Below, piece by piece: positions 50,327-64,000 of a DNA stretch of 64,000 bases (position 1 is its first letter; each line of letters opens with the position of its first letter). The DNA is taken from positions 5,696,001 to 5,760,000 of the forward strand of contig OY760937.1 in NCBI GenBank assembly GCA_963664225.1, written 5' to 3'. The notes beneath the pieces are model-generated. The model saw nothing but the letters and a program-made list of their open reading frames with translations. It was not told the DNA's origin and did no database searches. Origin of the DNA: Verrucomicrobiia bacterium. GTDB lineage: Bacteria; Verrucomicrobiota; Verrucomicrobiia; Limisphaerales; UBA1319. The position numbers were made by a program, and so were the translations under genes.

Positions 50327-51943
50327 TCAGGGCTCTGGCTCTGCTAATCGTGCTTCCACAAATTCAGGTTGTGGCTCTGACCTAGGCGAAGCACAATTTG
50401 AATCGTTCTCTCTGTCATTTAAATCGTTAGAAGGTTTTCCACCCTCGTTTGAATTGGCCTTGGGATCTGATCGACGTTCCGCTTTAGGCGCCTTTACAAC
50501 GGAGGATTGCGGAGCGGTCTCAGCTATCTGCGTTTCGATCCTACCCTTACTTGGGTAAAACTCGTTAATAATTTTTCTGACCAAGGGCATCGTTACGGTG
50601 GTTTCAGACTGTTTTGCCTCATCGCGCGCTAGTTTTGCAATGTTTTCAAAGGTCTTGAGGAAGCTCTCGGCCGTGAGCGCACAAAAAGCGATATCGAGTT
50701 TATCTGCCGTATCAGCGATTTCAGGCAAATAAAACTCCACGAGATTAAGGAGGTCGGACTCAGGCAGTTTATCGGGCAGGTCGAACTCCACCCAACGGCC
50801 TTTGTGTTGTTGCATCGGATAGTGGGTCACGCGTTCAAATTTGGTGACGTCGCCGTGAGTTCCATCAAACCAATCTGGCGTAACTGCTATGACGACCGGC
50901 AGATTACGGTCGAAGAGTTGTTTCCGGACCCAATCGAGCCGGGGAGGGGAGGAATCCTTTTTAGGGGAACGCGGAATCAGAAAATGGCCCTCATCGAAGA
51001 TCAGGAAAAGTCCACTTTGCTTAACTACCTCAAAAATTTGCTGCCGTAGATTTTGGTACCCTGAGACGTGCGCTGTATGAATGCCAAGTGCTTCTGCGAC
51101 CGCGATCAAGAAGCCAAGCATGTCGTTAGAATCAGGTACAGTTATCAATCTAGCCCTCCCAGGCCACATTAAGGAATATGCTTCGAGACTTTCCGACTTT
51201 CCAAATCTGGATCCACCGCGCAACAATATCATCATGTTCGTGCGGAAGGCGATGCCGAGTATTCGGAAAACCTGCTTAGTCACGACCGTCATGACGACAC
51301 GACTCTGTTTGATCTTGTCAGCTCGGCAGTCCATGAATTTAAGGATGGCCTCAATTGCATTTTCAAAATACCACGGTCCATCGCAGTCCGGCAAATTGCT
51401 GTTGCTTTCAAATCCTTGGTCAAAATCCAAACATAATGCAGCCAGGTATTCTGGAAGTATTTCTAAGGCGACGTCTCTGCATGCGTTTCGAAAATATTCG
51501 AAGTCCATGTGGCTCGTTGCCATTTCAAGTAGTTCCCGGGGAAACAATGCCCAACTGCTCAGATGATCCATGGAGGCTTGATTATTAAAAAAGACCATTC
51601 CGGTGTCCGGATTGACGATCGACGGTCGCGCCCACTGCGCCATCTCGCTCCAGACTTGCATTCGCTCGTCAACGCCCCAATTCCGCTTGCCAAATTGGCG
51701 CATGCTAACAGTGCCGATTCTATCATAATAATCCCGAACTAAATCTGCGGAAAGCAATTTCAAACCGCCTGTCTCCATGGACATCCCTTGTATAGACCAG
51801 AGCAATTCAAGCAGACGCGGATTCGCCTGCATCTGCCTGTACAATTTTGGAGACTTGTAAGATCTTATCGCAGCAACTTTTTGGGCTAATTGTAATGGGT
51901 CGATGCTTGTGGCGACTGCAGTCTCTATCAGTAGATTTCGCAT
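50327..51943 (-). CDS. MuB/TnsC-like AAA+ ATPase with N-terminal extension
   Basis: Walker A GGSRFGKS and Walker B LIFDEGH. Downstream of the transposase. Confidence 0.72.
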   Translation of the reverse strand: MRNLLIETAVATSIDPLQLAQKVAAIRSYKSPKLYRQMQANPRLLELLWSIQGMSMETGGLKLLSADLVRDYYDRIGTVSMRQFGKRNWGVDERMQVWSEMAQWARPSIVNPDTGMVFFNNQASMDHLSSWALFPRELLEMATSHMDFEYFRNACRDVALEILPEYLAALCLDFDQGFESNSNLPDCDGPWYFENAIEAILKFMDCRADKIKQSRVVMTVVTKQVFRILGIAFRTNMMILLRGGSRFGKSESLEAYSLMWPGRARLITVPDSNDMLGFLIAVAEALGIHTAHVSGYQNLRQQIFEVVKQSGLFLIFDEGHFLIPRSPKKDSSPPRLDWVRKQLFDRNLPVVIAVTPDWFDGTHGDVTKFERVTHYPMQQHKGRWVEFDLPDKLPESDLLNLVEFYLPEIADTADKLDIAFCALTAESFLKTFENIAKLARDEAKQSETTVTMPLVRKIINEFYPSKGRIETQIAETAPQSSVVKAPKAERRSDPKANSNEGGKPSNDLNDRENDSNCASPRSEPQPEFVEARLAEPEP

Positions 51944-52055
51944 ACACCCAATCTTTAACGGGACGATTCACTCAAACTATTATTTCCGAAGTGGCATTAG
52001 AAGGTAACGATCGGGATAGATAGAACCTGTCAAACTGCAGATCGTTTGTGGTTCC

Positions 52056-54563
52056 TTAAGTGTTTTCCAAACCATGTTGCGATTCAGATTTCGTTTGGCG
52101 CAGTTTGTCAGCTTTCTTGCGCATGTCGATCGCTTGTTCTGCACGGGATGGGTACCGCTTAACAGTTTCTTGTGGAACATGTGCCTTCGTAGCTTCGGTT
52201 TGCAACTTGCGTAAGCGGTTATCGGCCTCCTTCTTTTCGTTATTGAATATTTCATTCTCTCGGTTGTGGAATTCCCCAAACTTCTTCTCTTCCTCAGTAT
52301 ATTCCGCGTCTCGGACAACAGTGGAAATTACCTCCGGTTTCAATTCGCTGAAGATTCCCTTTGCGTAAGCTCTGTGTGCTTTTTTAAGTTGTCTGATGGC
52401 ATCAAGCTGCTCTGGCAAAGCAGTCATCGCGGAGGCTTCAACCTCTTGCACAGAAAAGTATTCCTTGTGCTGCCTGTCATAAACCGTGAGTAATTCTGGT
52501 AGTTCGATATTGTAAAATGCCAAAACTGGTCTCCCGATAATTCGACCCGTGTGCCCGTTGTAATAGAGATGTGGAATTCCTCGAACCTTTATCAATATCC
52601 CCTCTTGCCGCACAGTGACGTATTTTCGGTGAGTGGAGAGAATGTAGCGAGCCTCATTAGGCAGCTTTTTGAGAGTGCTCGTCCGGAATTCATTAGCCCA
52701 TGCCTCAGATGGTGAATATCCATCGAGCATTTTACCGTTTTGGGGATCGCGGGCGAAATCATTGAGCACTGACGTAATTCTGCTTACCCAATCTGTCATG
52801 GTCGGGAATTGCATCACCGCATCAAGCTCCCCTCTGCGGGCTCTTGCAAGAAGGTCCTGCATCCTTTCATAACAATCGGTCTGTTCGTTAAAACCAACAA
52901 AACCAGGGATGGCCTTCATCTTGTTTTGCAGGATGAGTAACAGGCCCTCGATTGGTTTGGCGCGTGGTGTTGTTGCGTGGCGCACTTCAAGTTGCATTCC
53001 AACGCCACGAAGTCCACTTTCAGTTTCACGCCAGGGAACGGGCATCCCGCGGCGTCGATCACCGCTGACCAAGCGCGAGGCCCAGACTCCTTGCTCAAAA
53101 TAATAACCCATGCGCGGTAGTCCGACCTTATCGTGGACCTTCAGGGCAAGATTCCGAATGTGTTCGCCATTGTATTTTCCCGGAATCAGCAGGAACTCAA
53201 GGGGATAGCCGGTGCGCAGGTCGTTCATCAGAAGACATTCACCCCTCATAATTCCCCATCCTCCGTCTGCCAATCGCACCCGGAAATAGTGATTCCAAGT
53301 CACATCGTCCGCACAAAACCAATCTCCAGGTCTGACGCCAGACCAATCTCGCGGGGTATAGGGACCTCGCATCGTGGCCTCCCACGGGCCGTGCAGGAGT
53401 GGCAAGCACATCTCAACATCGGGAGTAATTTTATCCCTCACGGACAGCGGCACATTGCTCTTGTCATCGCGCGGAGCGAATCTATATCGCTTGCAGAATT
53501 CATCGCTCAATTCTCCGCGCTCGCGGAGTTCCCGGTACGCAAGCGATTCATTCCCGCTCAGTTCGATGGCACGGTTCCGGATCTTCTTGAGATCTGCTGT
53601 GAAATCTGATTTGCAGAAGTTACCGGACGTTAGGCAACGCCGATCCTGCAGAGCTTCCGGATTGCGATTGCCCTCTCGCCACTGAATAATTTTCTCTTCA
53701 AATCGCCGCCTGAGGCTCTTGGCTGAGCCGCACAGCGTGCCAGGCGGAAATGCTTTTGACAGGTAGCACAGCAAAGATGCCTTGATACGGTGCCGTTTGC
53801 GATTGCCTTTTGGCGAATCCGTGAGTGCATCGCTTAGTTTCTCATAGTGCCTGAATACGGCGCTCCACAAGTATTTCTTTTCCTCTGGTGTGGGTTTTTG
53901 ACGGTCCTCAGTCGACTCGATTATTTCATCGAGATCTCTATGAATGTACTCCATCTCACGAACGAGCCGCGACGACTTCTGGGTATAAAAAGCCCGATCG
54001 TCAAGGTATATCTCCGGTGCTATCCAATTTTCCGCCCCGCCATCCCGGTCGATTGAGCGATCGATCAACCGCCGCCAGTGTCGATTGGAAATTGTGTAAC
54101 CCATATGCTTTTGGAAATTCTCCAAGCCGAGTTGCTCAATCTGACTCGCGGGAGCGGTCGAGGCATACCAACCGTTTAATGTTGGTGCCAAGGCCTTCTG
54201 GAGTTTTAGCGCTTTCTCCCGCCAGAACGGTTGCAATTGGGCCCACGCCACTGGTGGAACCCACGGCTCTCTCGGCATGCTCGCAATGTATCGAATTCCA
54301 TCCTCATATTTGCGTTCTACCCCTCGACGCGTCACCCGCAATTGCCAGTCCAATGGAAGCGTTTGAAAGGCCCAAGCCGCTGTTTCCTTTCCTTGGACCG
54401 TGACATTTTTGGTTGGGACGACACGCTCCAAGCCGTAATAGACTGCGCGTCGGGTTATGCCTGTTGCGCGAGAAATCTGCACGACAGTGAACAAATTGTA
54501 GGCCTCAGCTGGTTCGCTCATTTTCTTTTTTGGACTGTGTATGGCCCCGATCCGGGCGTTCAT
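52056..54563 (-). CDS. MuA/TnsB-like DDE transposase
   Basis: N-terminal HTH (TVVQISRATGITRRAV), PGDWFCADD, DLRTGYP, PRAKPIEG, and a C-terminal TVRQEGI beta-barrel-like segment. Confidence 0.78.
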   Translation of the reverse strand: MNARIGAIHSPKKKMSEPAEAYNLFTVVQISRATGITRRAVYYGLERVVPTKNVTVQGKETAAWAFQTLPLDWQLRVTRRGVERKYEDGIRYIASMPREPWVPPVAWAQLQPFWREKALKLQKALAPTLNGWYASTAPASQIEQLGLENFQKHMGYTISNRHWRRLIDRSIDRDGGAENWIAPEIYLDDRAFYTQKSSRLVREMEYIHRDLDEIIESTEDRQKPTPEEKKYLWSAVFRHYEKLSDALTDSPKGNRKRHRIKASLLCYLSKAFPPGTLCGSAKSLRRRFEEKIIQWREGNRNPEALQDRRCLTSGNFCKSDFTADLKKIRNRAIELSGNESLAYRELRERGELSDEFCKRYRFAPRDDKSNVPLSVRDKITPDVEMCLPLLHGPWEATMRGPYTPRDWSGVRPGDWFCADDVTWNHYFRVRLADGGWGIMRGECLLMNDLRTGYPLEFLLIPGKYNGEHIRNLALKVHDKVGLPRMGYYFEQGVWASRLVSGDRRRGMPVPWRETESGLRGVGMQLEVRHATTPRAKPIEGLLLILQNKMKAIPGFVGFNEQTDCYERMQDLLARARRGELDAVMQFPTMTDWVSRITSVLNDFARDPQNGKMLDGYSPSEAWANEFRTSTLKKLPNEARYILSTHRKYVTVRQEGILIKVRGIPHLYYNGHTGRIIGRPVLAFYNIELPELLTVYDRQHKEYFSVQEVEASAMTALPEQLDAIRQLKKAHRAYAKGIFSELKPEVISTVVRDAEYTEEEKKFGEFHNRENEIFNNEKKEADNRLRKLQTEATKAHVPQETVKRYPSRAEQAIDMRKKADKLRQTKSESQHGLENT

Positions 54564-55048
54564 TTGATTCTAATTGAGCAGATTGGAGGGTCGGCGCGCG
54601 ATCCCCGATTTCTGCCGCGTCCAGACAAGATAATCCAATTCTTGTGTCATTTGGTATATGATGCACATAAAACGATGATGGGAGCCCACAACAGTTCCAG
54701 CAGTTCACCACGCGCTGGAAGAGGGTCGCGATGGATCGTTGGGTCGCAATCTTTTAAAGATTGCTGCATCTTTAAGTGGCTTTTTCTGGTTCATGATTAC
54801 ATTGGCAGCTTCCGTCGGCTGTTTGCCCTGCGATGAAATACGCCGTCGATTGAGGGGTGCCGGGTCAGCTTTGCTTGTATGGGCGCGACTGCGTGGAGCC
54901 GACATAAATCTCCGAAAACTGCGCAAATTGAGCCGCGCGGGAAATCATGCCACCGAGTTGGCGAATCCCCTTCGGGGCGTTTCGGCTTTGCTTCCATATG
55001 GCGGATGTGGTATGGTATAATGCAATAGATACAGCGAAATACAAAATA

Positions 55049-55441
55049 ATGCAAATTAAAAATGACTTTTTTCAAACGATTCGGCTGTTAAGGGTTCAGC
55101 GAGGGTTGTCGCAAGTCGAATTCGCTCGTTTTTTGGGCGTTACCCCGGCTGCGGTATGCAATTGGGAAAAGGGGCTCAGTAGCCCAGCCGAAAAACGGCT
55201 GGCGGCGATTGCTCAAAAATTGGGAGTGCCCGTCGAGTCGCTGCTTTCCATGTCGGTCGGTAACGGTCCGGGGAAAGTTCAGGAGATTCCACCGTGTTCT
55301 TCGCCGTTCCTGATTGCGTCAACCGTCGATGACCGGGGCAAGCGCCAAAAGCAGGCGCGCATGCTGGAGAAATTACTCACTCAGTTCACGGGCCTTGAAT
55401 TTCGGATCGATAATCCCGCGATTGGATCAGGGAAACGGTGA
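55049..55441 (+). CDS. XRE-family HTH repressor
   Basis: IRLLRVQRGLSQVEFARFLGVTPAAVCNWEKG...P...IAQKLGV. Divergent from the transposase. Confidence 0.85.
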   Translation: MQIKNDFFQTIRLLRVQRGLSQVEFARFLGVTPAAVCNWEKGLSSPAEKRLAAIAQKLGVPVESLLSMSVGNGPGKVQEIPPCSSPFLIASTVDDRGKRQKQARMLEKLLTQFTGLEFRIDNPAIGSGKR

Positions 55442-56052
55442 CCCAGGCAAACGATCACTTTCGTTGATTGTGGGAATTCCTTTTCCACAACGAGACCCGC
55501 TGGTTTCGTCCTCCCTTTCAGCATCATCAGGGCTGCTTTAACCCGGGCTGGTGAATGTTCTGGGCCCAGAGGGATTGTGGAAAACGGATGGATCTGAGAC
55601 GGCTGAGAGACGTTGGCCGTGATGAGGAATGTGGTGATTGCTCTTCTGTTGGTGTGGCCGATGATGTGAAACTTCGGTAACGTTTCAATGCGTGATAACG
55701 CGCATATTCGCGAATCCTGGATTATTCATCGATCGCCTTCTGGTCGCAAAGTCGTTGTTCTTCTTGCGCCTTTTTGGTTAATTCATCTTCTTTCATAAGT
55801 TCTTGTTTGGCATAACAATACAGCGTGATTACATGTGTGGTTTCCAGTAGAAAATGTGGTAGCGCAAGTGGTTCCACAGTGGTGTGTGGGCCGAATTTCT
55901 GAGCCACCGCCCTAAGAGTGGACAATCCGACGCCATGTTCAGAAGCAACGGCACGCCGTGTCAATTCACTCTGGTGATAGCGAAGGATCCGTTGGGCACG
56001 TTGTTCACATGTGGTTTGCGGAAATCGATTTGAGGATCCAGTTCTGTGGTTC

Positions 56053-56115
56053 ACGCCCCCCATTTAACCACTTCAGCCTGATCGTTGCCTATTAGCCACT
56101 TGGTCTGGCGGATAC
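56053..56115. repeat. Copy 1 of a ~63-bp imperfect direct repeat (copy 2 at 57726-57787)
   Basis: Shared exact core ATTTAACCACTTCAGCCTGA and end CGGATAC. Confidence 0.8.
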
Positions 56116-56478
56116 GTTGTATGTGTCCACACACATGCCGCAACGTCACCCCTGCACGCAGCCGCATATTGACCGAGGCGCTAGAGTGGTGGATTATATT
56201 TTCATGCGCGAAAAAACGCCTAACGGAAAAAGAACAGGTTCTGAAATTCATTTCATAGAATCAGAAACTGGCTGGTTTCTCAGGTCATATCTCAAAGGAA
56301 ACGGCAGCTTACGAGCCTGATAGAATGCCAAGGGTTTGTGTTTAATAAAGACTCACCTTATCTTGGATTTGTGGTAGTTGTCAAATCTACCCATCAACAC
56401 ATTCAGCACTTGTGCAAAATAATCGATATTGCATAATATTTCAACCGCCCAAAGCAGCGCATCAGGAATATCTCTCGT

Positions 56479-56607
56479 GCTGATTTGCAGGAAGTGTATG
56501 ACACTGAGCGGCACCTGCTCTACGTTGCCTGTACCCGGGCAAGAGACCATTTGCTGGTCACGAGCGTTGAGCCTCCGTCAGGATTTCTCGATGACATGCG
56601 GACGTGA
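56479..56607 (+). pseudogene. C-terminal fragment of a UvrD-like SF1 helicase
   Basis: Translates as ADLQEVYDTERHLLYVACTRARDHLLVTSVEPPSGFLDDMRT* (helicase motif VI), with no upstream body. Confidence 0.75.
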
Positions 56608-57391
56608 TCAGGTCGTTGGAGCCGGTGGAATCTGCATAACCCGGGTTGAATCGAATCAGCTGTCAGCGCCACACCACAAACACAGGAAGCAAAAACAAGA
56701 GGCAGAAGGGATTCGGCTTCGGAAGTCCACTGCCCTATTATGCGTTTTTTTGTGCCGGAATTGGGGATGCACCATTTCCAATAAAATAGCACGTGCCTTC
56801 CCAACTTGCGCTCTTCAATATTGCCTCGGCATTGGTCCGGTTTGGGATGATCACCGAAATGGGAATCTGGAGATCAAATGGAACTGATGGCACGTCGAAC
56901 TTCAGGAAGCATGTGCCGCCCCACTCTGATTGGAGTGCAGGATTTTCGGCGGGCAGAGTCTATAGGATCATACGGACATCTTGAGCAACGCCGCCTTGAG
57001 GCATAATTTGGGCGTCAAGTTCCTCGACCAAAACATTGAAGCTGAGTCATGGTTGAGGCCATTCCTTGGTAGTTTTTTCCCAGTTCTTGTCGATCTGTGC
57101 GGCAATCCTTTTCAACCAATGACGGACAAGCGCAGGAAGCTTCAGATTTGCCATGTGCCTTTTGATCGCATAGCTATGTCCGTCGTCACCGATACGCCCC
57201 GGAGCGCGGTCGTATCTATAATTGCTCATTACTCCCTGATTTCCCTCGTCTGGCCCCCATCTGTAGGGGACCTATGACTATTTGGACAAGGTTGGTCCAT
57301 AAATAAATATGCGCGTCGAAGTTCAAACCGTCGGAAACGCGTATTCAGCGATAAATCCCCCTGTCGCGCCTCGAGCGGTGCAGTTGTGGTG

Positions 57392-57570
57392 GATGAAACC
57401 TATCCCATGCTCACAAAAAGGGCCAAAAAGTAGGCGTCCGTGATTCTTTTTATGGATGATGCCGGGTTCCAGTCTGATCCGCCTCAGGGACAGACCCATG
57501 GATTGAAGGAGAAACCCCGATCGACAAGACCTCGGATCAACGACTACGTGGACAGTTTGCAGGGGAGATT
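57392..57570 (+). pseudogene. IS630-family transposase remnant
   Basis: ETYPMLTKRAKK*ASVILFMDDAGFQSDPPQGQTHGLK resembles the IS630 F.DEAG..SD...G.T.G.KG block. Internal stop and deletions. Confidence 0.55.
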
Positions 57571-57571
57571 C

Positions 57572-57631
57572 GTCCCCGGAGTGAAAAAATGGCGGCTACG
57601 ACTTTCAAAAAAATAAGTCTATAATTAGGAA
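57572..57631. repeat. Copy 1 of a ~60-bp degenerate direct repeat (copy 2 at 62666-62729)
   Basis: GTCCCCGGAGTGAAAAAATGGC...ATAAGTCTATAATTAGGAA. Confidence 0.65.
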
Positions 57632-57725
57632 TGATATGTGAATGAAAGAACGATTGTAAAATGCAACATGCACATATAATTGGTTAGAATCATATGACCT
57701 AAGAAGAATGATTGTCGTTGAACAA

Positions 57726-57787
57726 ACGCCCCCAATTTAACCACTTCAGCCTGACCATTACCTATTGCCGCATCTCCTGACGGATAC
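57726..57787. repeat. Copy 2 of the ~63-bp direct repeat
   Basis: Matches 56053-56115 at about 52 of 63 positions. Abuts the metallopeptidase stop codon. Confidence 0.8.
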
Positions 57788-57788
57788 A

Positions 57789-58625
57789 CTAAATTGTCCG
57801 TGGTTCTAATAATGTGAGAACACCTCGGCTCCGCAGGCGAATAGCCGATTCCATGAATATTTCGTCAAATTGGCTGCCTTCGGCGACACCTGTAAACCAG
57901 GCGCTGGCAACCGTTCCGTTCTGATGCACCCTTCCCAACGTCAGGGTGTTATCAAGCATCGCTAGGCCCGTGGCTGAATCAGCGGGTATCACTTCATTGG
58001 TCAACTTCTTAACCCATTGATACCCTCGTGACTTCAGTTCTGGGGAAATATCCCACCAGGGTTTGCCAGCATCGCGAAACATAACTATGGCACAGGGTGT
58101 TTTGCTTATGGCGGTGAAACGCAGAGCTGCACTCTGAATGGAAACGCTAAACGTGCTGGCAATATCGACTATGCCTCGCAGCCCAGGTGAAACCTCCGTC
58201 AGTGCTTTGCGGAATTCCTGGCCAGGCATCAGAAGATTTGCAGAGAAGAGATTTGCCTCCACCTCTATAGGACTGTCCGCTGGATGTTCCGTAAAGGAAA
58301 AATGCGGTGGCAGGCCTGCCAAGAGTGCATTGCGGTGTTCATCGATGAAAAGGTGGCCCAGTTCGTGGGCAACTGTAAAACGAGCCCGAGGAGAGTTACA
58401 GGGCTGTCCCCGGGTCGTGTTGCAGTATATGTGAAATTTGGAACTTCTATGTTCCAACAACCCGTCAAAGGCGTTTCCATAGTCGCCATAAGAGAGGGTT
58501 ACACCAGATGCATTGACAATTGCATCCAAAAAAACTTGACGTTCTCTGGAATGGGTTTGCCAAACGTCCTCTGCCAACTCCGAGATGAATATATGACGTT
58601 CCCGAGGTAGGTCAATAAGCGCCAT
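57789..58625 (-). CDS. ImmA/IrrE (CapP-like) zinc metallopeptidase
   Basis: RARFTVAHELGH, EVEANLFSANLLMP, FSVS..SAALR and a C-terminal GAF-like region. Start MALIDL overlaps the upstream stop. Confidence 0.9.
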   Translation of the reverse strand: MALIDLPRERHIFISELAEDVWQTHSRERQVFLDAIVNASGVTLSYGDYGNAFDGLLEHRSSKFHIYCNTTRGQPCNSPRARFTVAHELGHLFIDEHRNALLAGLPPHFSFTEHPADSPIEVEANLFSANLLMPGQEFRKALTEVSPGLRGIVDIASTFSVSIQSAALRFTAISKTPCAIVMFRDAGKPWWDISPELKSRGYQWVKKLTNEVIPADSATGLAMLDNTLTLGRVHQNGTVASAWFTGVAEGSQFDEIFMESAIRLRSRGVLTLLEPRTI

Positions 58626-59013
58626 TGTTGATTTGTTCCTTTGCCCTGGCCCGATCCGCATCCATACGCTTACGGATTTCCTCGGTAATTTCGCCGCCGT
58701 TCCTAGCGGCCATGGCGAGTTTTTCGAGATCCTGCTCAACTTGAAGTGAACTAATTTTAGAACCAATTCTCGTCGTGGTCGGAAATTCCACAATATTCTC
58801 CTCGCTCTGGCGCAGGAGTTGGCGAAACTTCTCGGTGTCCGGGGTTGGGACTCCATTCATGTCTATGCTAGCCTTCAGTGAGGCGACATCTTCCGTGATA
58901 CGCGGAAAGAGATAACCATCATCCCGAAGTGCAGCATACACAGCTGCTTCGAACTCAGCGTCCGAAAGCTCTTTCGGCTGTTCACTATTCGAGTGGGTCT
59001 TCATATGTTGCAT
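58612..59013 (-). CDS. Small hypothetical protein, putative anti-sigma and peptidase substrate
   Basis: 133 aa between the sigma factor and the peptidase, overlapping the peptidase start. Contains GYLFP.T..DV and LAMAARNG. Confidence 0.65.
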   Translation of the reverse strand: MQHMKTHSNSEQPKELSDAEFEAAVYAALRDDGYLFPRITEDVASLKASIDMNGVPTPDTEKFRQLLRQSEENIVEFPTTTRIGSKISSLQVEQDLEKLAMAARNGGEITEEIRKRMDADRARAKEQINNGAY

Positions 59014-59034: not shown

Positions 59035-59745
59035 TTAAGCGTGTGTTTGGATGAATGCTTTAGCTTGGTCTCTAAGACGCTTGCGACGAACCCGAAGACT
59101 GGACTCGGTTAATCCGTATTCTCTACAAATGCCCTCACGGATATCGTCATCAATTACCGATTCCCCATTTTCGGGATCCCAGAACTCAGCTGTGACCGTC
59201 AGAATTTCCCGGTCCTTTGGAGACAAAGTTTCCAGGAATCTTAGAACCGCAGCTTTTCGGCTGGTCGGGACTTGCTCTGCCGTCGCCTGACGTTTCTCCT
59301 CTATATTTTCCAGCCACTCGGTGTCCTCGTCCGAGCACCGCACGGCTGGACGTCTATTTTCCGCACGCAGGCTGTCCAAAAACAGGTTTTTCATTATCCG
59401 GAACAACCAAGCCAGCACTTGTGCGGTGCTCTGGCTTGGATCGGTGCACACAAAATGTTCGGCCTCCCGGTAAGCCTTAAGAAACGCAGCGTTCACAAAA
59501 CTCTCTGCCGATTCCCCGAATGTCTCTTGGCGGTATTTGATGCACCAAGCCAGCAAAAAGCGGGCATGGCGCCGGTGTAGCTCTTCACAAGCCTTAAGGG
59601 CCAATTCCTCATCGGTGTCCTTAAATGCCATGTACGTGACCAGTCCGTCGTCAGACTCGCGCTCGAGTTCGGGGTGAGAGCAAGTCACCAATCCGGTGAC
59701 GGGTTCCGGTTCTTCCAATATGTTGTTTTGGGCGACGTCTTCCAT
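59035..59745 (-). CDS. ECF-like sigma-70 family factor
   Basis: Region 2-like ACEELHRRH...AFLKAY...AWLFRIMKNLFLDSLR. Region 4-like LETLSPKDREIL...ICREYGLTESSLRVRRKRL. Confidence 0.8.
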   Translation of the reverse strand: MEDVAQNNILEEPEPVTGLVTCSHPELERESDDGLVTYMAFKDTDEELALKACEELHRRHARFLLAWCIKYRQETFGESAESFVNAAFLKAYREAEHFVCTDPSQSTAQVLAWLFRIMKNLFLDSLRAENRRPAVRCSDEDTEWLENIEEKRQATAEQVPTSRKAAVLRFLETLSPKDREILTVTAEFWDPENGESVIDDDIREGICREYGLTESSLRVRRKRLRDQAKAFIQTHA

Positions 59746-59897
59746 CAAGATTATAACGTTTGGCCGTTACATTGTGCTTATATGGTCATTACTTCTTCTC
59801 TTATACGTCACCTCCTGAGCCATGAAACGCTAAATCGTTATGACGGTGAAGGAGGAGCAAAGAGCTTCCGAGACAACCTAACGAAAGACCAAATATT

Positions 59898-60278
59898 ATG
59901 AAAGAAAATGGAAGATCGCCAGAGGCGGCTGAAGTGGTGGAAAAAGACCTCAAGAAAATTGGTGAACCTGTGGAAGAAATCGAAAAACTAGAAGAAGAGG
60001 TCGATCTTGAATCGTACGCCAAGGCTGGGAAACAGCCACCGAGGGCAAAGCGGTATCGCATCCGTGTGGATGACCGCTACTTTGTGGTACACCAGGCGTG
60101 CATGAAAGGCATTGAAATCTTGGTTCTGGCAGGAAAAACGCCACCAGAGAGCTTCATTTTAACCCAAAAGTCCAAAGGTGGTGCTTTGCACACGATTGAA
60201 CTGGGCGATATCGTCGACTTCACCAAATCCGGGATTGAACGTTTCAATACACTGCCCCGCCAGGTCCAAGAGGGTTAA
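59898..60278 (+). CDS. Ubiquitin-like (multiubiquitin-domain type) protein ending in Gly
   Basis: YRIRVDD...GIEILVLAGK...IVDF...GIERF beta-grasp pattern, C-terminus QEG, and an acidic helical N-terminus. Confidence 0.8.
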   Translation: MKENGRSPEAAEVVEKDLKKIGEPVEEIEKLEEEVDLESYAKAGKQPPRAKRYRIRVDDRYFVVHQACMKGIEILVLAGKTPPESFILTQKSKGGALHTIELGDIVDFTKSGIERFNTLPRQVQEG

Positions 60279-60281
60279 TCT

Positions 60282-60671
60282 ATGCGCCGCGAATTTACTC
60301 TGCCGGAGGACGACGTTGAGCACCTAGATACGCTTGGCGTGAATTGGGAGACGCTCCGTGATCCCAGCGGGCAATGGCTTCTGCTCCATGGGTTTGCGTT
60401 TCCATCGGGCTACAATCACCCGAATGGGTCCGTTGCCATACAGATCCCGGGAAACTATCCGGTTTCTCCGCTGGACATGGCATATTTCTTTCCTCACCTT
60501 CAGCGTCTGGATGGGCAACCGCTCCGGCAGACAGAATGCATGATGCAGGTGGATGGCAAATCTTGGCAGCGATGGTCCCGACATTACACTTGGGTGCCTG
60601 GGCAGCACAACCTCGGCACTCACATCGTTCTAACGCGCCATTGGCTGGAGCAGGGCGTGGGGAGAGGATGA
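60282..60671 (+). CDS. Prokaryotic E2/UBC-fold protein (E2 family E type)
   Basis: LPEDD..L...WE, FPSGYN, IPGNYP..PLDMAYF.P and WQRWSRH..W.PG. Confidence 0.78.
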   Translation: MRREFTLPEDDVEHLDTLGVNWETLRDPSGQWLLLHGFAFPSGYNHPNGSVAIQIPGNYPVSPLDMAYFFPHLQRLDGQPLRQTECMMQVDGKSWQRWSRHYTWVPGQHNLGTHIVLTRHWLEQGVGRG

Positions 60672-62053
60672 AAACTCCCATGATGACTACCTTAAGAATG
60701 ACGGAGGAACAACGGTGTCAACTCCAGCGGCACCTTTTTCCCGGCGACGGTCAGGAAATGGTAGCACTCGCCCTGTGCGGTTCCAGTCTCGCGACTGACC
60801 GACAAGCGTACTGCGTCCATGAAATTATCGAAATTCCGAGGGATGCCTGCACTTTACGGACTGCCGTAACTGTTCAGTGGGATGTGCATGTCTTAATTCC
60901 GGTGCTGGAAAAGGCCCTGAAGCGGGGGTTGTGGGTGCTGAAAATTCATTCCCACCCGGGAAATTACGAGCGATTTTCTCCACAAGACGACCAAACGGAT
61001 ACAGATCTGGCGAAGGGAATCGGGTCTATTTTGGATCGTGAATCCTGCCTTATCAGCGCGTTTATGATGCCGGCAGGCAAGATTTATGGCCGCATAGTCA
61101 ACACAACTGCGGGCTTCACCGCAATTGATCAAATAATGGTGGTGGGTGACACGGTGTCTTTCATGCACGTGAATTTGCTTAATTTGGGGAATGACAAGGA
61201 TCTGCGCACCAGGCAGGCGTTCGGCGATGGAACAACCAATCTGCTGCGGTCGCTTTCGGTAGGCGTGGTTGGGTGTTCAGGGACGGGAAGCTGGGTCGTC
61301 GAACTTCTAGGAAGGTTGGGCGTTGGTCGGCTTATATTAGTGGATCCGGATACAATTGAGAAAAAGAACCTCAACCGGATTGTAAATTCGACCGCAAAAG
61401 ACCTCGATCGGCCCAAAGTGCACGTTTTGGCCGATTCAGTTCGGGCAGTGGGATTTGGAACCATCGTCGAAACTCACGCTAAAGAAATAGCTTGCGCCGG
61501 GGTCGTTAAGGCTCTGGCTTCTTGCGATTTCCTTTTTGGGTGCATGGATTCAGCTGATGGCCGGGAAACCTTAAACCGCATTGCGACCTATTACTTGCTC
61601 CCTTATGTGGATATTGGTGTGCGTTTGGATGCGGATGGACATGGCGGCGTTGAGCAAATATGCTGTGCCCTTCACTATCTTCTCCCAGGCGGCTCGAGTT
61701 TGTTATCTCGTGGTGTGATCACAGCGAAACAGGTTGAGGCGCAGTCGTTACAGCGCACCAACCCGGAACAATATGACTCCCGGCATAACGAGGGATACGT
61801 AAAAGGTGTGGCGGTGGACCGTCCAGCAGTAGTCAGTATCAATGGGTTTATCGCAACCCACGCTGTCAACGAGATGTTAGCGCGCCTGCACCCCTTCCGG
61901 CGGGATTCCAACGAGGAATTTCGTTATCAACTGTTCTCGCTCTGTGATGGCGCCTGGCTACGGCAGTCAGACGGTCCGCCCTGCCAATTTCTGTCCCGCT
62001 ATGTTGGACGTGGCGATGCTCAACCGCTGCTTGGAAATCCCGCATTATCATGA
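60668..62053 (+). CDS. JAB/MPN peptidase - ThiF/E1 adenylyltransferase fusion
   Basis: JAB motif E...KIHSHP...FSPQDD..D. E1 motifs VGVVGCSGTGS, LVDPD...KNLNR, K and FGCMD. The ATG at 60668 overlaps the E2 stop (ATGA). Confidence 0.88.
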   Translation: MKTPMMTTLRMTEEQRCQLQRHLFPGDGQEMVALALCGSSLATDRQAYCVHEIIEIPRDACTLRTAVTVQWDVHVLIPVLEKALKRGLWVLKIHSHPGNYERFSPQDDQTDTDLAKGIGSILDRESCLISAFMMPAGKIYGRIVNTTAGFTAIDQIMVVGDTVSFMHVNLLNLGNDKDLRTRQAFGDGTTNLLRSLSVGVVGCSGTGSWVVELLGRLGVGRLILVDPDTIEKKNLNRIVNSTAKDLDRPKVHVLADSVRAVGFGTIVETHAKEIACAGVVKALASCDFLFGCMDSADGRETLNRIATYYLLPYVDIGVRLDADGHGGVEQICCALHYLLPGGSSLLSRGVITAKQVEAQSLQRTNPEQYDSRHNEGYVKGVAVDRPAVVSINGFIATHAVNEMLARLHPFRRDSNEEFRYQLFSLCDGAWLRQSDGPPCQFLSRYVGRGDAQPLLGNPALS

Positions 62054-62424
62054 AACGGACTTTCAGAGGTTGGCTTGCTGATTGGCTGCGCTCAAATCGA
62101 AATGAACCAGTGCGCTTTCGGACAGAACGAACGGATCGGATGCTGAGGTCGTTTCAGCCTAATATCATTTACCAGATTGGCGACGAAGATTGTAGTTGGG
62201 CTGCCGCCTTGCGTTGTCCCTGCGGTTGTGGAGACGTTATCCAACTGAGTCTTGTCAGGGATGCCAGCCCGTCGTGGCGAATACAGCAGCGCCGGAATGG
62301 GGAGGTAACCTTGTTGCCGTCGGTATGGAGAACCGTTGGTTGTCGAAGCCACTTTATTATTTATCGCAGTCGCGTTGTTTGGTGCTCGGATGAATCGCCC
62401 GCGATCGACCAGTGGCGGTGGTGA
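62050..62424 (+). CDS. DUF6527-like Cys/His-rich protein
   Basis: CPCGCG...L.L...W...VTLLPSVW...GCRSHFII...V.WC. ATGA overlap with the E1 gene. Confidence 0.75.
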   Translation: MKRTFRGWLADWLRSNRNEPVRFRTERTDRMLRSFQPNIIYQIGDEDCSWAAALRCPCGCGDVIQLSLVRDASPSWRIQQRRNGEVTLLPSVWRTVGCRSHFIIYRSRVVWCSDESPAIDQWRW

Positions 62425-62665
62425 GAAAAGGCCCTTAATTGACCAAATAGCCCCTTTTAAGCCTTTTCCACTATGAAAACATTTCGAGAAATTCAAATAG
62501 CCGCTAACATCGCTAATGGTGACAAGTTCGGGGTGGCCATTGAGGCGGTCTTGTCGAACGGCTGGACCCGATTCGAGCAAGCGTCCCATTGATTCGACAT
62601 GTGGCAGGTACGTTTATTTTGTCTGCGAGACGAGTGATTACCGGCCAAAGGATTTGCTGGCACTT

Positions 62666-62729
62666 GTCCCCGGAGTTAAAGAATGGCAATTAACGGTTTT
62701 TCACAAAAGCATAAGTCTCTAATTATGAA
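62666..62729. repeat. Copy 2 of the ~60-bp degenerate direct repeat
   Basis: GTCCCCGGAGTTAAAGAATGGC...ATAAGTCTCTAATTATGAA. The first 22 bp match copy 1 at 20 positions. Confidence 0.65.
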
Positions 62730-63089
62730 CGGAATACAGATGACGGAAAGGTCATCAAACGTAACTGGGCAAAATGATTGGCGGTGACGAGCGTGAACTT
62801 CCCGCCAAACATTCGTTGCAATGCAATTTCCCGCCACGTTTTCAGGTTGATTTTGCTGCATCTTGCCCCTGCAAAGAAAGCGTGGCGGTGCTTAGATTTC
62901 GAATTCAGTTGATCGCTCTTGGCCAACAGGTCGGCTTTGGCACGCGGCAGCATCGAACGTTTGTCGGCTTCATTCCGGGATTTGATCGCCCATTTCGGCA
63001 CGCCGTATTTGAGCCAGTTGTTCTTCTGAAAGGAATTCAGCATCTGAATACCCGTCGACATACACCTGAAGAGGCTCACGGAGTTCAAT

Positions 63090-63319
63090 ACCACCACCAC
63101 ATGACTCCACAGACTGAAGGTTCTGGCCATCTTATCAACGTAGGCTTCCCGCGCTATTCTCGTGGAAACCAAAAACTCAGGAACGAAGTTGCAAATCTGC
63201 CCTAACAGATTCAATTTCGAACCGGCTGGAATGCTTTTGTTTTTTTTCACCCCTGCCGTGTGGCAGGTTAACTCAGAACGTTCCAGCCTTTTTCATTTAT
63301 TCCCTATGGGATGGCTGTG
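63090..63319 (-). pseudogene. IS4-family remnant: candidate left end plus transposase N-terminus (DUF4372-like)
   Basis: LLGQICNFVPEFLV..IARE..VDKMARTFSLWSHVV, after which the resemblance ends. Candidate end CACAGCCATCCCATA at 63319-63305. Confidence 0.55.
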
Positions 63320-64000
63320 GAAGAACAATGCAAATTGCTGTCGATAGGGATAATTTGCCTGATTGATATTATCGTGGCGGAAACCTCGCGCATGTATGGC
63401 TTCATAGCGGGTTGCAATGGCATCCCGGATGATATCGTTAGGAGTTTACGAGAAGAAGATTGGAGTGATGTTAGAGTTGAAACCGGCAGAAGGCTTTTTG
63501 ACCAGGTCTCGAGAGATTGGGAGATGGAAAAACAAAGTTGAGTTATTCCAGATCACGCTCTTTTGGAATTATTTGCAAAACCTGACGATTCAAGCGACAA
63601 CATAGGAACCAACAAAATGCAAAACCTTGTTTAGCTCTGCCTGCTCAATCCTGGAGCAAACTTCGTGCAATAGATTCGTTTTTGCATTCAAGATTGAGGT
63701 TTTCATGTATTGGATTCTTTCATAGACTGGACGACGAGAACCTCGCGCAGCCAAACGGCGTCCAAAACCCTATCCCCGATTTAAAACCCCGCCACCTATT
63801 TCGTGAAGATGGCCAGTTTAGCCACAGCAATTAGCGGGTATGAAATTTCGATCTATTCAGAGCTTAACATTTCCGAATTAACTACTTGCTGACTTGCTAC
63901 TGCGGCCTTTAGCGTCAGGGCCATGATTCAATTTACCGGAAAACACGCCTTGCACCCGACTTTATTCATTGAGTGTTATGAGGCTTTGATTGATGGACAA

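Follow-up and report, generated by a model that had tools for sequence, protein, structure and literature searches.

Bacterial operons previously designated 6E or DUF6527 have been renamed Bub, for bacterial ubiquitination-like, by the Corbett laboratory (10.1101/2024.11.21.623953; 10.1101/2024.11.21.623966), and the DUF6527 protein, BubE, is a component present throughout these operons (Ye, Gong, Chambers and Corbett, 10.1101/2024.11.21.623953). Their chemistry proceeds through oxyester intermediates formed on a tyrosine of the E1 and a serine of the E2, and BubE is a Ser-His protease (10.1101/2024.11.21.623953). The Type I operon of Citrobacter sp. RHBSTW-00271, encoding BubAB, BubCD, and BubE, is represented in the PDB by 9ea4, 9ea8, 9eae, and 9eav (10.1101/2024.11.21.623953); Type I operons are said to encode a BubAB fusion that is cleaved by the JAB peptidase after a conserved glycine (10.1101/2024.11.21.623953; 10.1101/2024.11.21.623966). 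In the 64,000-nucleotide stretch of Verrucomicrobiia bacterium DNA analysed here and called the window (assembly GCA_963664225.1, contig OY760937.1, positions 5,696,001 to 5,760,000 of the forward strand), the four genes at 59898..62424 very probably constitute a complete and intact Type I Bub operon (formerly 6E.1/DUF6527). The locus had originally been described as a poorly characterised DUF6527-containing variant, a description that has to be abandoned, as DUF6527 operons are the Bub family, with enzymology published in 2024 and crystal structures in the PDB. As such the operon is an ordinary family member and only modestly interesting on its own; what goes beyond the known family is how often the layout is unfused while the JAB site is conserved, together with a putative sigma-based CapP switch.

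The four genes lie on the plus strand and comprise bubA, coding for the ubiquitin-like protein (Ubl) (59898..60278, 126 aa ending in QEG followed by TAA; Pfam Multi_ubiq, E 4.4e-12), bubB, coding for the E2-like protein (60282..60671, 129 aa; Prok-E2_E, 4.1e-33), bubCD, coding for a JAB/JAMM-E1 fusion (60668..62053, 461 aa; ThiF, 9.2e-28), and bubE, coding for the DUF6527 protease (62050..62424, 124 aa; DUF6527, 1e-19). A gap of 3 nt (TCT) separates bubA from bubB, and the bubB-bubCD and bubCD-bubE junctions are ATGA overlaps. BubB aligns over residues 2-127 with the Citrobacter BubB (PDB 9eae_C, E 8.2e-27), and its D65, S99, and H101 map through this alignment to Citrobacter D299, S333, and H335. 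The conservation of these residues was followed in a survey of 80 Bub loci from one-genome-per-species contigs plus the window operon, all of which gave matches to all four Bub proteins: S99 and H101 are present in 81/81 sequences and D65 in 80/81. BubB is cysteine-free, and no conserved Cys column occurs among its homologues.

BubCD aligns over residues 9-460 with Citrobacter BubCD (PDB 9ea4_A, E 2.4e-68) and is a fusion protein in which a JAB/JAMM peptidase, covering approximately residues 1-170, precedes an E1 adenylation domain. Its JAMM residues are E30, H94, H96, S104, and D107, its adenylation arginine is R237 and its crossover-loop tyrosine Y377; Citrobacter E28, H91, H93, and D104 correspond to E30, H94, H96, and D107, R227 to R237, and Y370 to Y377. 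The JAMM, R237, and Y377 residues are invariant in the BubCD alignment A1, and in the survey R237 and Y377 are found in 81/81 sequences and the EHHSD JAMM set in 80/81, while the stretch aligned to the Citrobacter crossover loop contains no Cys. The exception, in a metagenome-assembled genome of Geobacteraceae (locus L078), reads STEAE at the aligned JAMM positions; this is probably a gene-call or alignment problem, or could alternatively be a JAB-dead variant. In BubE, the four-cysteine (C4) zinc site C56, C58, C60, and C98 and the Ser-His dyad S91 and H101 correspond to the published C57, C59, C61, C99, S92, and H102, whose roles as zinc ligands and Ser-His pair are taken from Ye et al. (10.1101/2024.11.21.623953), and the six residues are present in 80/80 sequences.

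Most of what the original prediction had said about the four genes is thus borne out: the tight coupling by the coordinates of the open reading frames (ORFs), the intactness by full ORFs with every published catalytic residue, and the reading as Ubl, E2 fold, JAB-E1, and DUF6527 by Pfam and PDB matches. In particular, the E2 fold is confirmed by the Prok-E2_E and 9eae_C matches, the JAB-E1 fusion with intact motifs by the 9ea4_A match together with the JAMM, Arg, and Tyr residues, and the cysteines of the Cys-rich fourth protein prove to be the BubE zinc ligands. A conjugation system lacking a cGAS/DncV-like nucleotidyltransferase (CD-NTase) had also been proposed, in agreement with the absence of a CD-NTase ORF from the locus. 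Since the catalytic residues are present and conserved, the operon has all that the published oxyester mechanism needs, and ATP-dependent conjugation of BubA via oxyester intermediates is predicted. By analogy with the characterized enzymes, BubCD would adenylate the C-terminal Gly126 of BubA and load BubA on Tyr377 as an oxyester; BubA would then be passed to Ser99 of BubB, helped by His101 and Asp65, and transferred by BubB onto target lysines, and BubE, as a zinc-stabilised Ser91-His101 protease, would take the tag off.

Several points weigh against this assignment and the role attached to it. The fusion stated for Type I operons is absent, bubA and bubB being separate, a trait whose weight is considered below with the unfused operons. 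The Prok-JAB match in BubCD is sub-threshold (4.3e-4, 20.6 bits versus a 25-bit cut-off), and the JAB call therefore rests on the BubCD alignment. PADLOC returned only weak Cap2-type E1 matches among the four operon proteins and none for the other three; because the PADLOC v2.0 library is without Bub models, this result is no argument against the Bub assignment. The activity of the operon is here a prediction from sequence. Finally, the Discussion of 10.1101/2024.11.21.623953 reports that E. coli gained no phage protection from any Bub operon, and in the accessible part of a 2026 EMBO J paper phage protection by Bub is still presented as not demonstrated.

The claim of a protein-tagging defence system consequently stands in its first half, as the domains are those of a tagging operon, and not in its second, since phage protection has yet to be demonstrated for a Bub operon. 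For Bub, the word defence is drawn from context, and involvement in DNA damage or stress is just as possible; the biological role of the window operon may be a stress response or an antiphage function, and the operon adds one example to a family whose chemistry is solved. A competing explanation, held to be somewhat short of an even chance, is that the operon tags host proteins upon DNA damage or general stress rather than acting against phage. This option is raised by the Bub authors themselves, who found no phage protection, and agrees with the response of CapP-type regulators, one of which is encoded beside the operon, to single-stranded DNA (ssDNA) and DNA damage (Lau et al., 10.1101/2022.04.27.489752). 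Set against it, none of them decisively, are the patchy distribution of BubCD, the Mu-like transposase context in the window, which is a lead only, and the restriction and mobile-element neighbours of Bub operons elsewhere, which fit a defence island. BubCD was found in 1/40 related genomes searched (same order, 30% identity) and in 0/9 genomes of the same family (completeness 75-98%), a sparseness that supports the accessory status previously proposed for the locus; the genome has a single DUF6527 locus.

To survey the neighbours elsewhere, the closest ORF with a length of 150 aa or more was taken from either flank of 78 Bub loci, which gave 145 ORFs; 104 were scanned, and the 41 left out were known regulators, ORFs antisense to regulators, or members of near-identical sister loci. 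A Pfam match at E <= 1e-8 was obtained for 37/104, including eight mobile-element genes (integrases, resolvases, a DDE transposase, TniQ, and a TrwC relaxase), eight restriction-type or helicase genes (type I R subunits, DEAD+MZB, SNF2, UvrD), and also zeta toxin and dCTP-deaminase-like genes and a few housekeeping genes. Bub loci in two Bacteroidota genomes are flanked, respectively, by a dCTP-deaminase-like gene (L077:7697-8278) and by a cytidine-deaminase/HATPase_c_4 gene (L075:4691-6148); both the dCTP-deaminase-like and the cytidine-deaminase families are linked to antiphage nucleotide-depletion systems.

Directly upstream of bubA and divergent from it lies an intact minus-strand operon of three genes, missed in the original prediction, which had described the neighbours as decayed; the description fails for these three genes and holds further out (55.4-57.8 kb and beyond 62.4 kb). 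The first gene encodes an extracytoplasmic function (ECF)-type sigma factor (59035..59745, 236 aa; Sigma70_r2, 1.5e-7) that matches TIGR02937 over residues 52-229 with 46.1 bits versus a cut-off of 42.9. The second encodes a protein of 133 aa in the position of CapH (58612..59013), with a weak match to the PADLOC capH profile (2.9e-6), and the third a CapP-type M78 (ImmA/IrrE) metallopeptidase with a HELGH motif (57789..58625; PADLOC capP, 7.1e-43), which also matches Peptidase_M78 (2.7e-12), the CapP structure PDB 7t5t (3.1e-9), and IrrE (7.9e-5). The longest ORF of capP reaches 58856, and its homologs start at the Met at 58625 and have lengths of about 280 aa. When the three window proteins were used as phmmer queries (E <= 1e-3) against the 79 other loci, the sigma factor was found beside Bub in 31, the small protein in 23, the peptidase in 33, and all three together in 20; in the distant loci tested, the next gene upstream encodes a Sigma70_r2 protein in 4/4.

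The 133-aa protein has no Pfam or NCBIfam match, and no helix-turn-helix (HTH) family was found in it. Searches of the ESM Atlas gave no usable match, a fold search with its model gave none (predicted template modelling score, pTM, 0.24), and the profile of its family retrieved from the PDB only EF-hand noise (E about 0.01) and no CapH. Modelled alone with AlphaFold2, it forms five helices, three of them N-terminal and, after a disordered linker (78-86), a C-terminal helical pair that holds the only invariant motif of the family, around A102-R104. Modelled with the sigma factor, it reaches a complex score of 0.84 (best of three controls 0.00), a mark attained by 116/157 solved complexes and 2/215 mismatched pairs, counts that hold only roughly because alignments made for this analysis were used. 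Contact agreement among runs is at least 74% and the predicted local distance difference test (pLDDT) of the partner at least 62; residues 15-71 of the small protein touch residues 46-122 and 145-233 of the sigma factor, that is regions 2 and 4. Contact with both region 2 and region 4 is the binding manner of anti-sigma domains, and the pass may partly reflect likeness to solved sigma/anti-sigma complexes. Canonical CapH is cut by CapP within a C-terminal two-helix domain, as given in a 2026 CapP preprint. Because of the modelled contacts with the sigma factor and of a helical pair at the place of the canonical cut domain, the 133-aa protein is a candidate CapP-cleavable anti-sigma factor, and the arrangement of the three genes suggests a protease-released anti-sigma switch.

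The intergenic region to which such a switch would be directed was compared among 24 sigma-to-bubA regions, all shorter than 400 nt (locus L021 was dropped for a wrong Ubl call). A promoter-like element faces bubA at 59823..59852 on the plus strand, with a TGAAAC box, then CGTT, then GGTGAAGG, and the intergenic comparison places a mirror copy facing the sigma operon at 59740..59771 on the minus strand. The consensus is TG(T/A/G)AAC, an invariant CGTT 7 nt later, and GGTGA(A/T)G, with the outer boxes 17 nt apart; one clade has a variant form. Exactly two ACG-N6-CGT cores occur in 14/24 regions, and with a looser pattern a mirrored directional pair occurs in 17/24, a single element in one, and none in six. 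The two mirrored copies would be consistent with a sigma factor that regulates its own operon and drives bubA as well.

In both mirrored elements of the window (59746-59897) the invariant CGTT stands midway in the 17-nt spacer and forms the palindromic ACG-N6-CGT core with the first box. The AAC and CGT boxes were considered as an ECF -35/-10 pair and rejected, being only 7 nt apart. Conservation is lacking over roughly the first 50 residues of the sigma ORF, the ECF profile beginning at residue 52, and the conserved GTGATG box of the minus-facing element contains the assumed start ATG; for these reasons the true start may be a conserved Met near residue 39, downstream of the assumed ATG.

The same genes admit another explanation, in which the 133-aa protein is a divergent DNA-binding CapH repressor that acts on the palindromic ACG-N6-CGT cores, the sigma factor being an accessory or a passenger. 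Its main support is the palindromic core in conserved intergenic elements, which would suit a dimer; in addition, the PADLOC capH profile aligns the protein end to end, and Lau et al. mention 24 CBASS (cyclic oligonucleotide-based antiphage signalling) systems in which capH and capP accompany a sigma-70-family gene, in a single sentence that proposes no different mechanism (10.1101/2022.04.27.489752). However, the elements have a direction and come as mirror images, unlike simple palindromes. The loci also fall into two clear groups: among 14 small proteins linked to a sigma factor, no Pfam match at E <= 0.01 and no HTH family was detected, whereas HTH_3 is found in the CapH-position protein of 5/7 sigma-less loci; the absence of CapH from the PDB matches of the family and the modelled placement of residues 15-71 on the sigma factor argue in the same direction. 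A repressor is thus considered unlikely, at roughly three chances in ten. According to the anti-sigma interpretation, which is preferred, the CapH-position protein would have exchanged its DNA-binding domain for an anti-sigma domain and would hold the ECF sigma factor inactive; CapP, activated by ssDNA, would cleave it, and the freed sigma factor would fire the two mirrored promoters, those of its own operon and of bubA. Expression of bub is probably switched on by the sigma/CapH-like/CapP set in response to DNA damage or phage. If the anti-sigma interpretation is true, the cassette is a variant of the CapH+CapP DNA-damage switch that acts positively, through release of a sigma factor. The word sigma is absent from the accessible text of the 2026 CapP preprint, and no description of a protease-released anti-sigma mechanism was found in the literature searched; Supplementary Table S1 of the Bub preprints may already include regulators linked to a sigma factor, or unfused Type I operons.

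The other aspect extending the family concerns BubA and its separation from BubB. The AlphaFold2 model of BubA, built on an alignment of 26 unfused Ubls (pLDDT 79.7, core >90), has one beta-grasp domain (residues about 50-126) after a disordered acidic N-terminal tail, and its best Foldseek matches are 8u38 (8e-5), the Citrobacter BubA 9ea8_B (1.7e-4, target template modelling score 0.82), and 9cd2, with sequence matches to solved Bub and Bil Ubls being weak (E 0.012-0.5). The predicted structure is a beta-grasp matching solved BubA and BilA structures, in line with the Gly-terminated beta-grasp Ubl first proposed; a different fold, which would have spoken against a Ubl, was not obtained. E125 and G126 are invariant in 26/26 unfused Ubls, and, as G126 followed by TAA is the C-terminal residue as translated, no cleavage is needed to expose the glycine.

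Among 80 classified operons (79 loci plus the window operon, L078 having failed the filter and being unclassified), 40 are fused and 40 unfused. In the 40 unfused operons, the Ubl ORF ends exactly at the Gly in 30, has one to six extra residues in nine, and is unclear in one, and bubA and bubB lie in one frame in eight and overlap in different frames in the remainder. A quick maximum-likelihood tree built from 80 BubCD rows requires five changes of the fused/unfused label, at least four of which are forced by supported branches, and places the window operon inside an all-unfused clade of 14 operons with a Shimodaira-Hasegawa-like approximate likelihood ratio test (SH-aLRT) support of 98. The BubAB fusion is therefore treated as a descriptive and not a defining trait of Type I Bub, since 40/80 orthologous operons are unfused, the two states interleave on the tree, and the same two processed products result. 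Given the several changes and the supported all-unfused clade, the split is, as read from ORF layouts and phylogeny, a recurrent and stable architecture and not a lesion. The possibility that the operon is instead a decaying relic, in which a former BubAB fusion was broken by a nonsense mutation that created the TAA, draws on the single reading frame shared by bubA and bubB, which are separated by TAA and one codon, and on the degraded nearby DNA; with the stop exactly after the processing glycine, the termination at Gly in several frame arrangements among other unfused operons, the membership in the unfused clade, and all catalytic residues intact, it is very improbable.

Half of the sampled Type I operons thus make the Ubl and the E2 apart, yet their JAB active site is fully preserved, with intact JAMM residues in 40/40 unfused as in 40/40 fused operons. 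As the site is kept in all 40 unfused operons, the JAB peptidase must have a job beyond maturation of the fusion, most likely trimming or deconjugation. The joint proposition of a protease-gated sigma switch, with its anti-sigma factor, CapP, and two promoters, and of JAB as a deconjugase or editing enzyme in unfused operons is regarded as evenly balanced between right and wrong.

A sulfur-carrier or cofactor pathway of the ThiF/MoeB type can practically be dismissed, and so can a Bil or CBASS Cap2/Cap3 module, despite ThiF-family similarity and weak PADLOC E1-E2 matches, because the only NCBIfam matches of the operon proteins, to ThiF/MoeB, are far below their cut-offs (ThiF 69.3 versus 275), E2, JAB, and DUF6527 are present with no CD-NTase, the E1 loop and the E2 are without a catalytic Cys, and sulfur-carrier or cofactor genes, whose presence around homologs had been named as evidence against a conjugation operon, were found in 0/104 flank ORFs scanned at other Bub loci.

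Beyond the regulators, the region of about 2.3 kb at 55441-57789 (55.4-57.8 kb), between an HTH_3 gene (54947-55441) upstream of the regulators and capP, has no ORF longer than 152 aa and looks like degraded genes; within it, a 40-aa ORF (56485-56607) resembles the end of a UvrD-type helicase (UvrD_C_2, 3e-5, below cut-off). Further upstream on the minus strand, an ORF of 835 aa (52056-54563) without Pfam, NCBIfam, or PADLOC match resembles Mu-type transposases in the ESM Atlas (score 0.98, a lead only) and is followed, within 50327-54563, by a minus-strand AAA_22 ATPase gene (26.2 bits, just under the cut-off), with lepA and lepB beyond it; coming straight after lepA-lepB, the two genes at 50327-54563 may form a MuA/MuB-like transposition pair. 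On the other side, only short overlapping ORFs and fragments occur beyond 62.4 kb (62425-64000), among them a minus-strand ORF at 62723-63250 with a weak match to the transposase N-terminal family DUF4372 (E 0.009, below cut-off).

In comparison with known systems, the locus differs from ThiF/MoeB sulfur-carrier activation in having no equivalog-level match and no sulfur-transfer partners in the window or the 104 flank ORFs. Bil and Type II CBASS Cap2/Cap3 share with it the ubiquitin-like conjugation logic and a JAB peptidase; however, they use cysteine thioesters, absent here, Bil has a separate multi-domain E1, also absent, and Type II CBASS conjugates its CD-NTase through an E2-E1 fusion with a catalytic Cys, of which only weak E1-domain matches are seen. 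Type II Bub (BubA, BubBD, BubE; E. coli ZDHYS365) has in common with the locus a multi-ubiquitin-family Ubl, a cysteine-free E1 and E2, and BubE, and differs by an E2-E1 fusion, typically without JAB, in place of the JAB-E1 fusion and free E2 found here. The closest is the Citrobacter Type I Bub, which agrees with the locus in its domains, in the order of its genes, and in every published catalytic residue: the window operon has a Gly-ended Ubl, an E2 with Ser-His-Asp and no Cys, a JAB-E1 with the Tyr, and a BubE with C4 and Ser-His. In contrast to Citrobacter, where the BubAB fusion is cleaved by JAB and BubA has three beta-grasp domains, bubA and bubB are separate, BubA has one such domain and a disordered acidic tail, and the regulator is sigma-based. 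With the CapH+CapP regulators (Lau et al., 10.1101/2022.04.27.489752), finally, the neighbouring cassette shares a CapP-type M78 peptidase and a small protein just upstream, divergent from an immune-type operon. Whereas CapH carries an N-terminal HTH, the small protein here has none detectable and in the complex model binds the ECF sigma factor, and activation would therefore proceed by release of the sigma factor rather than by loss of a repressor.

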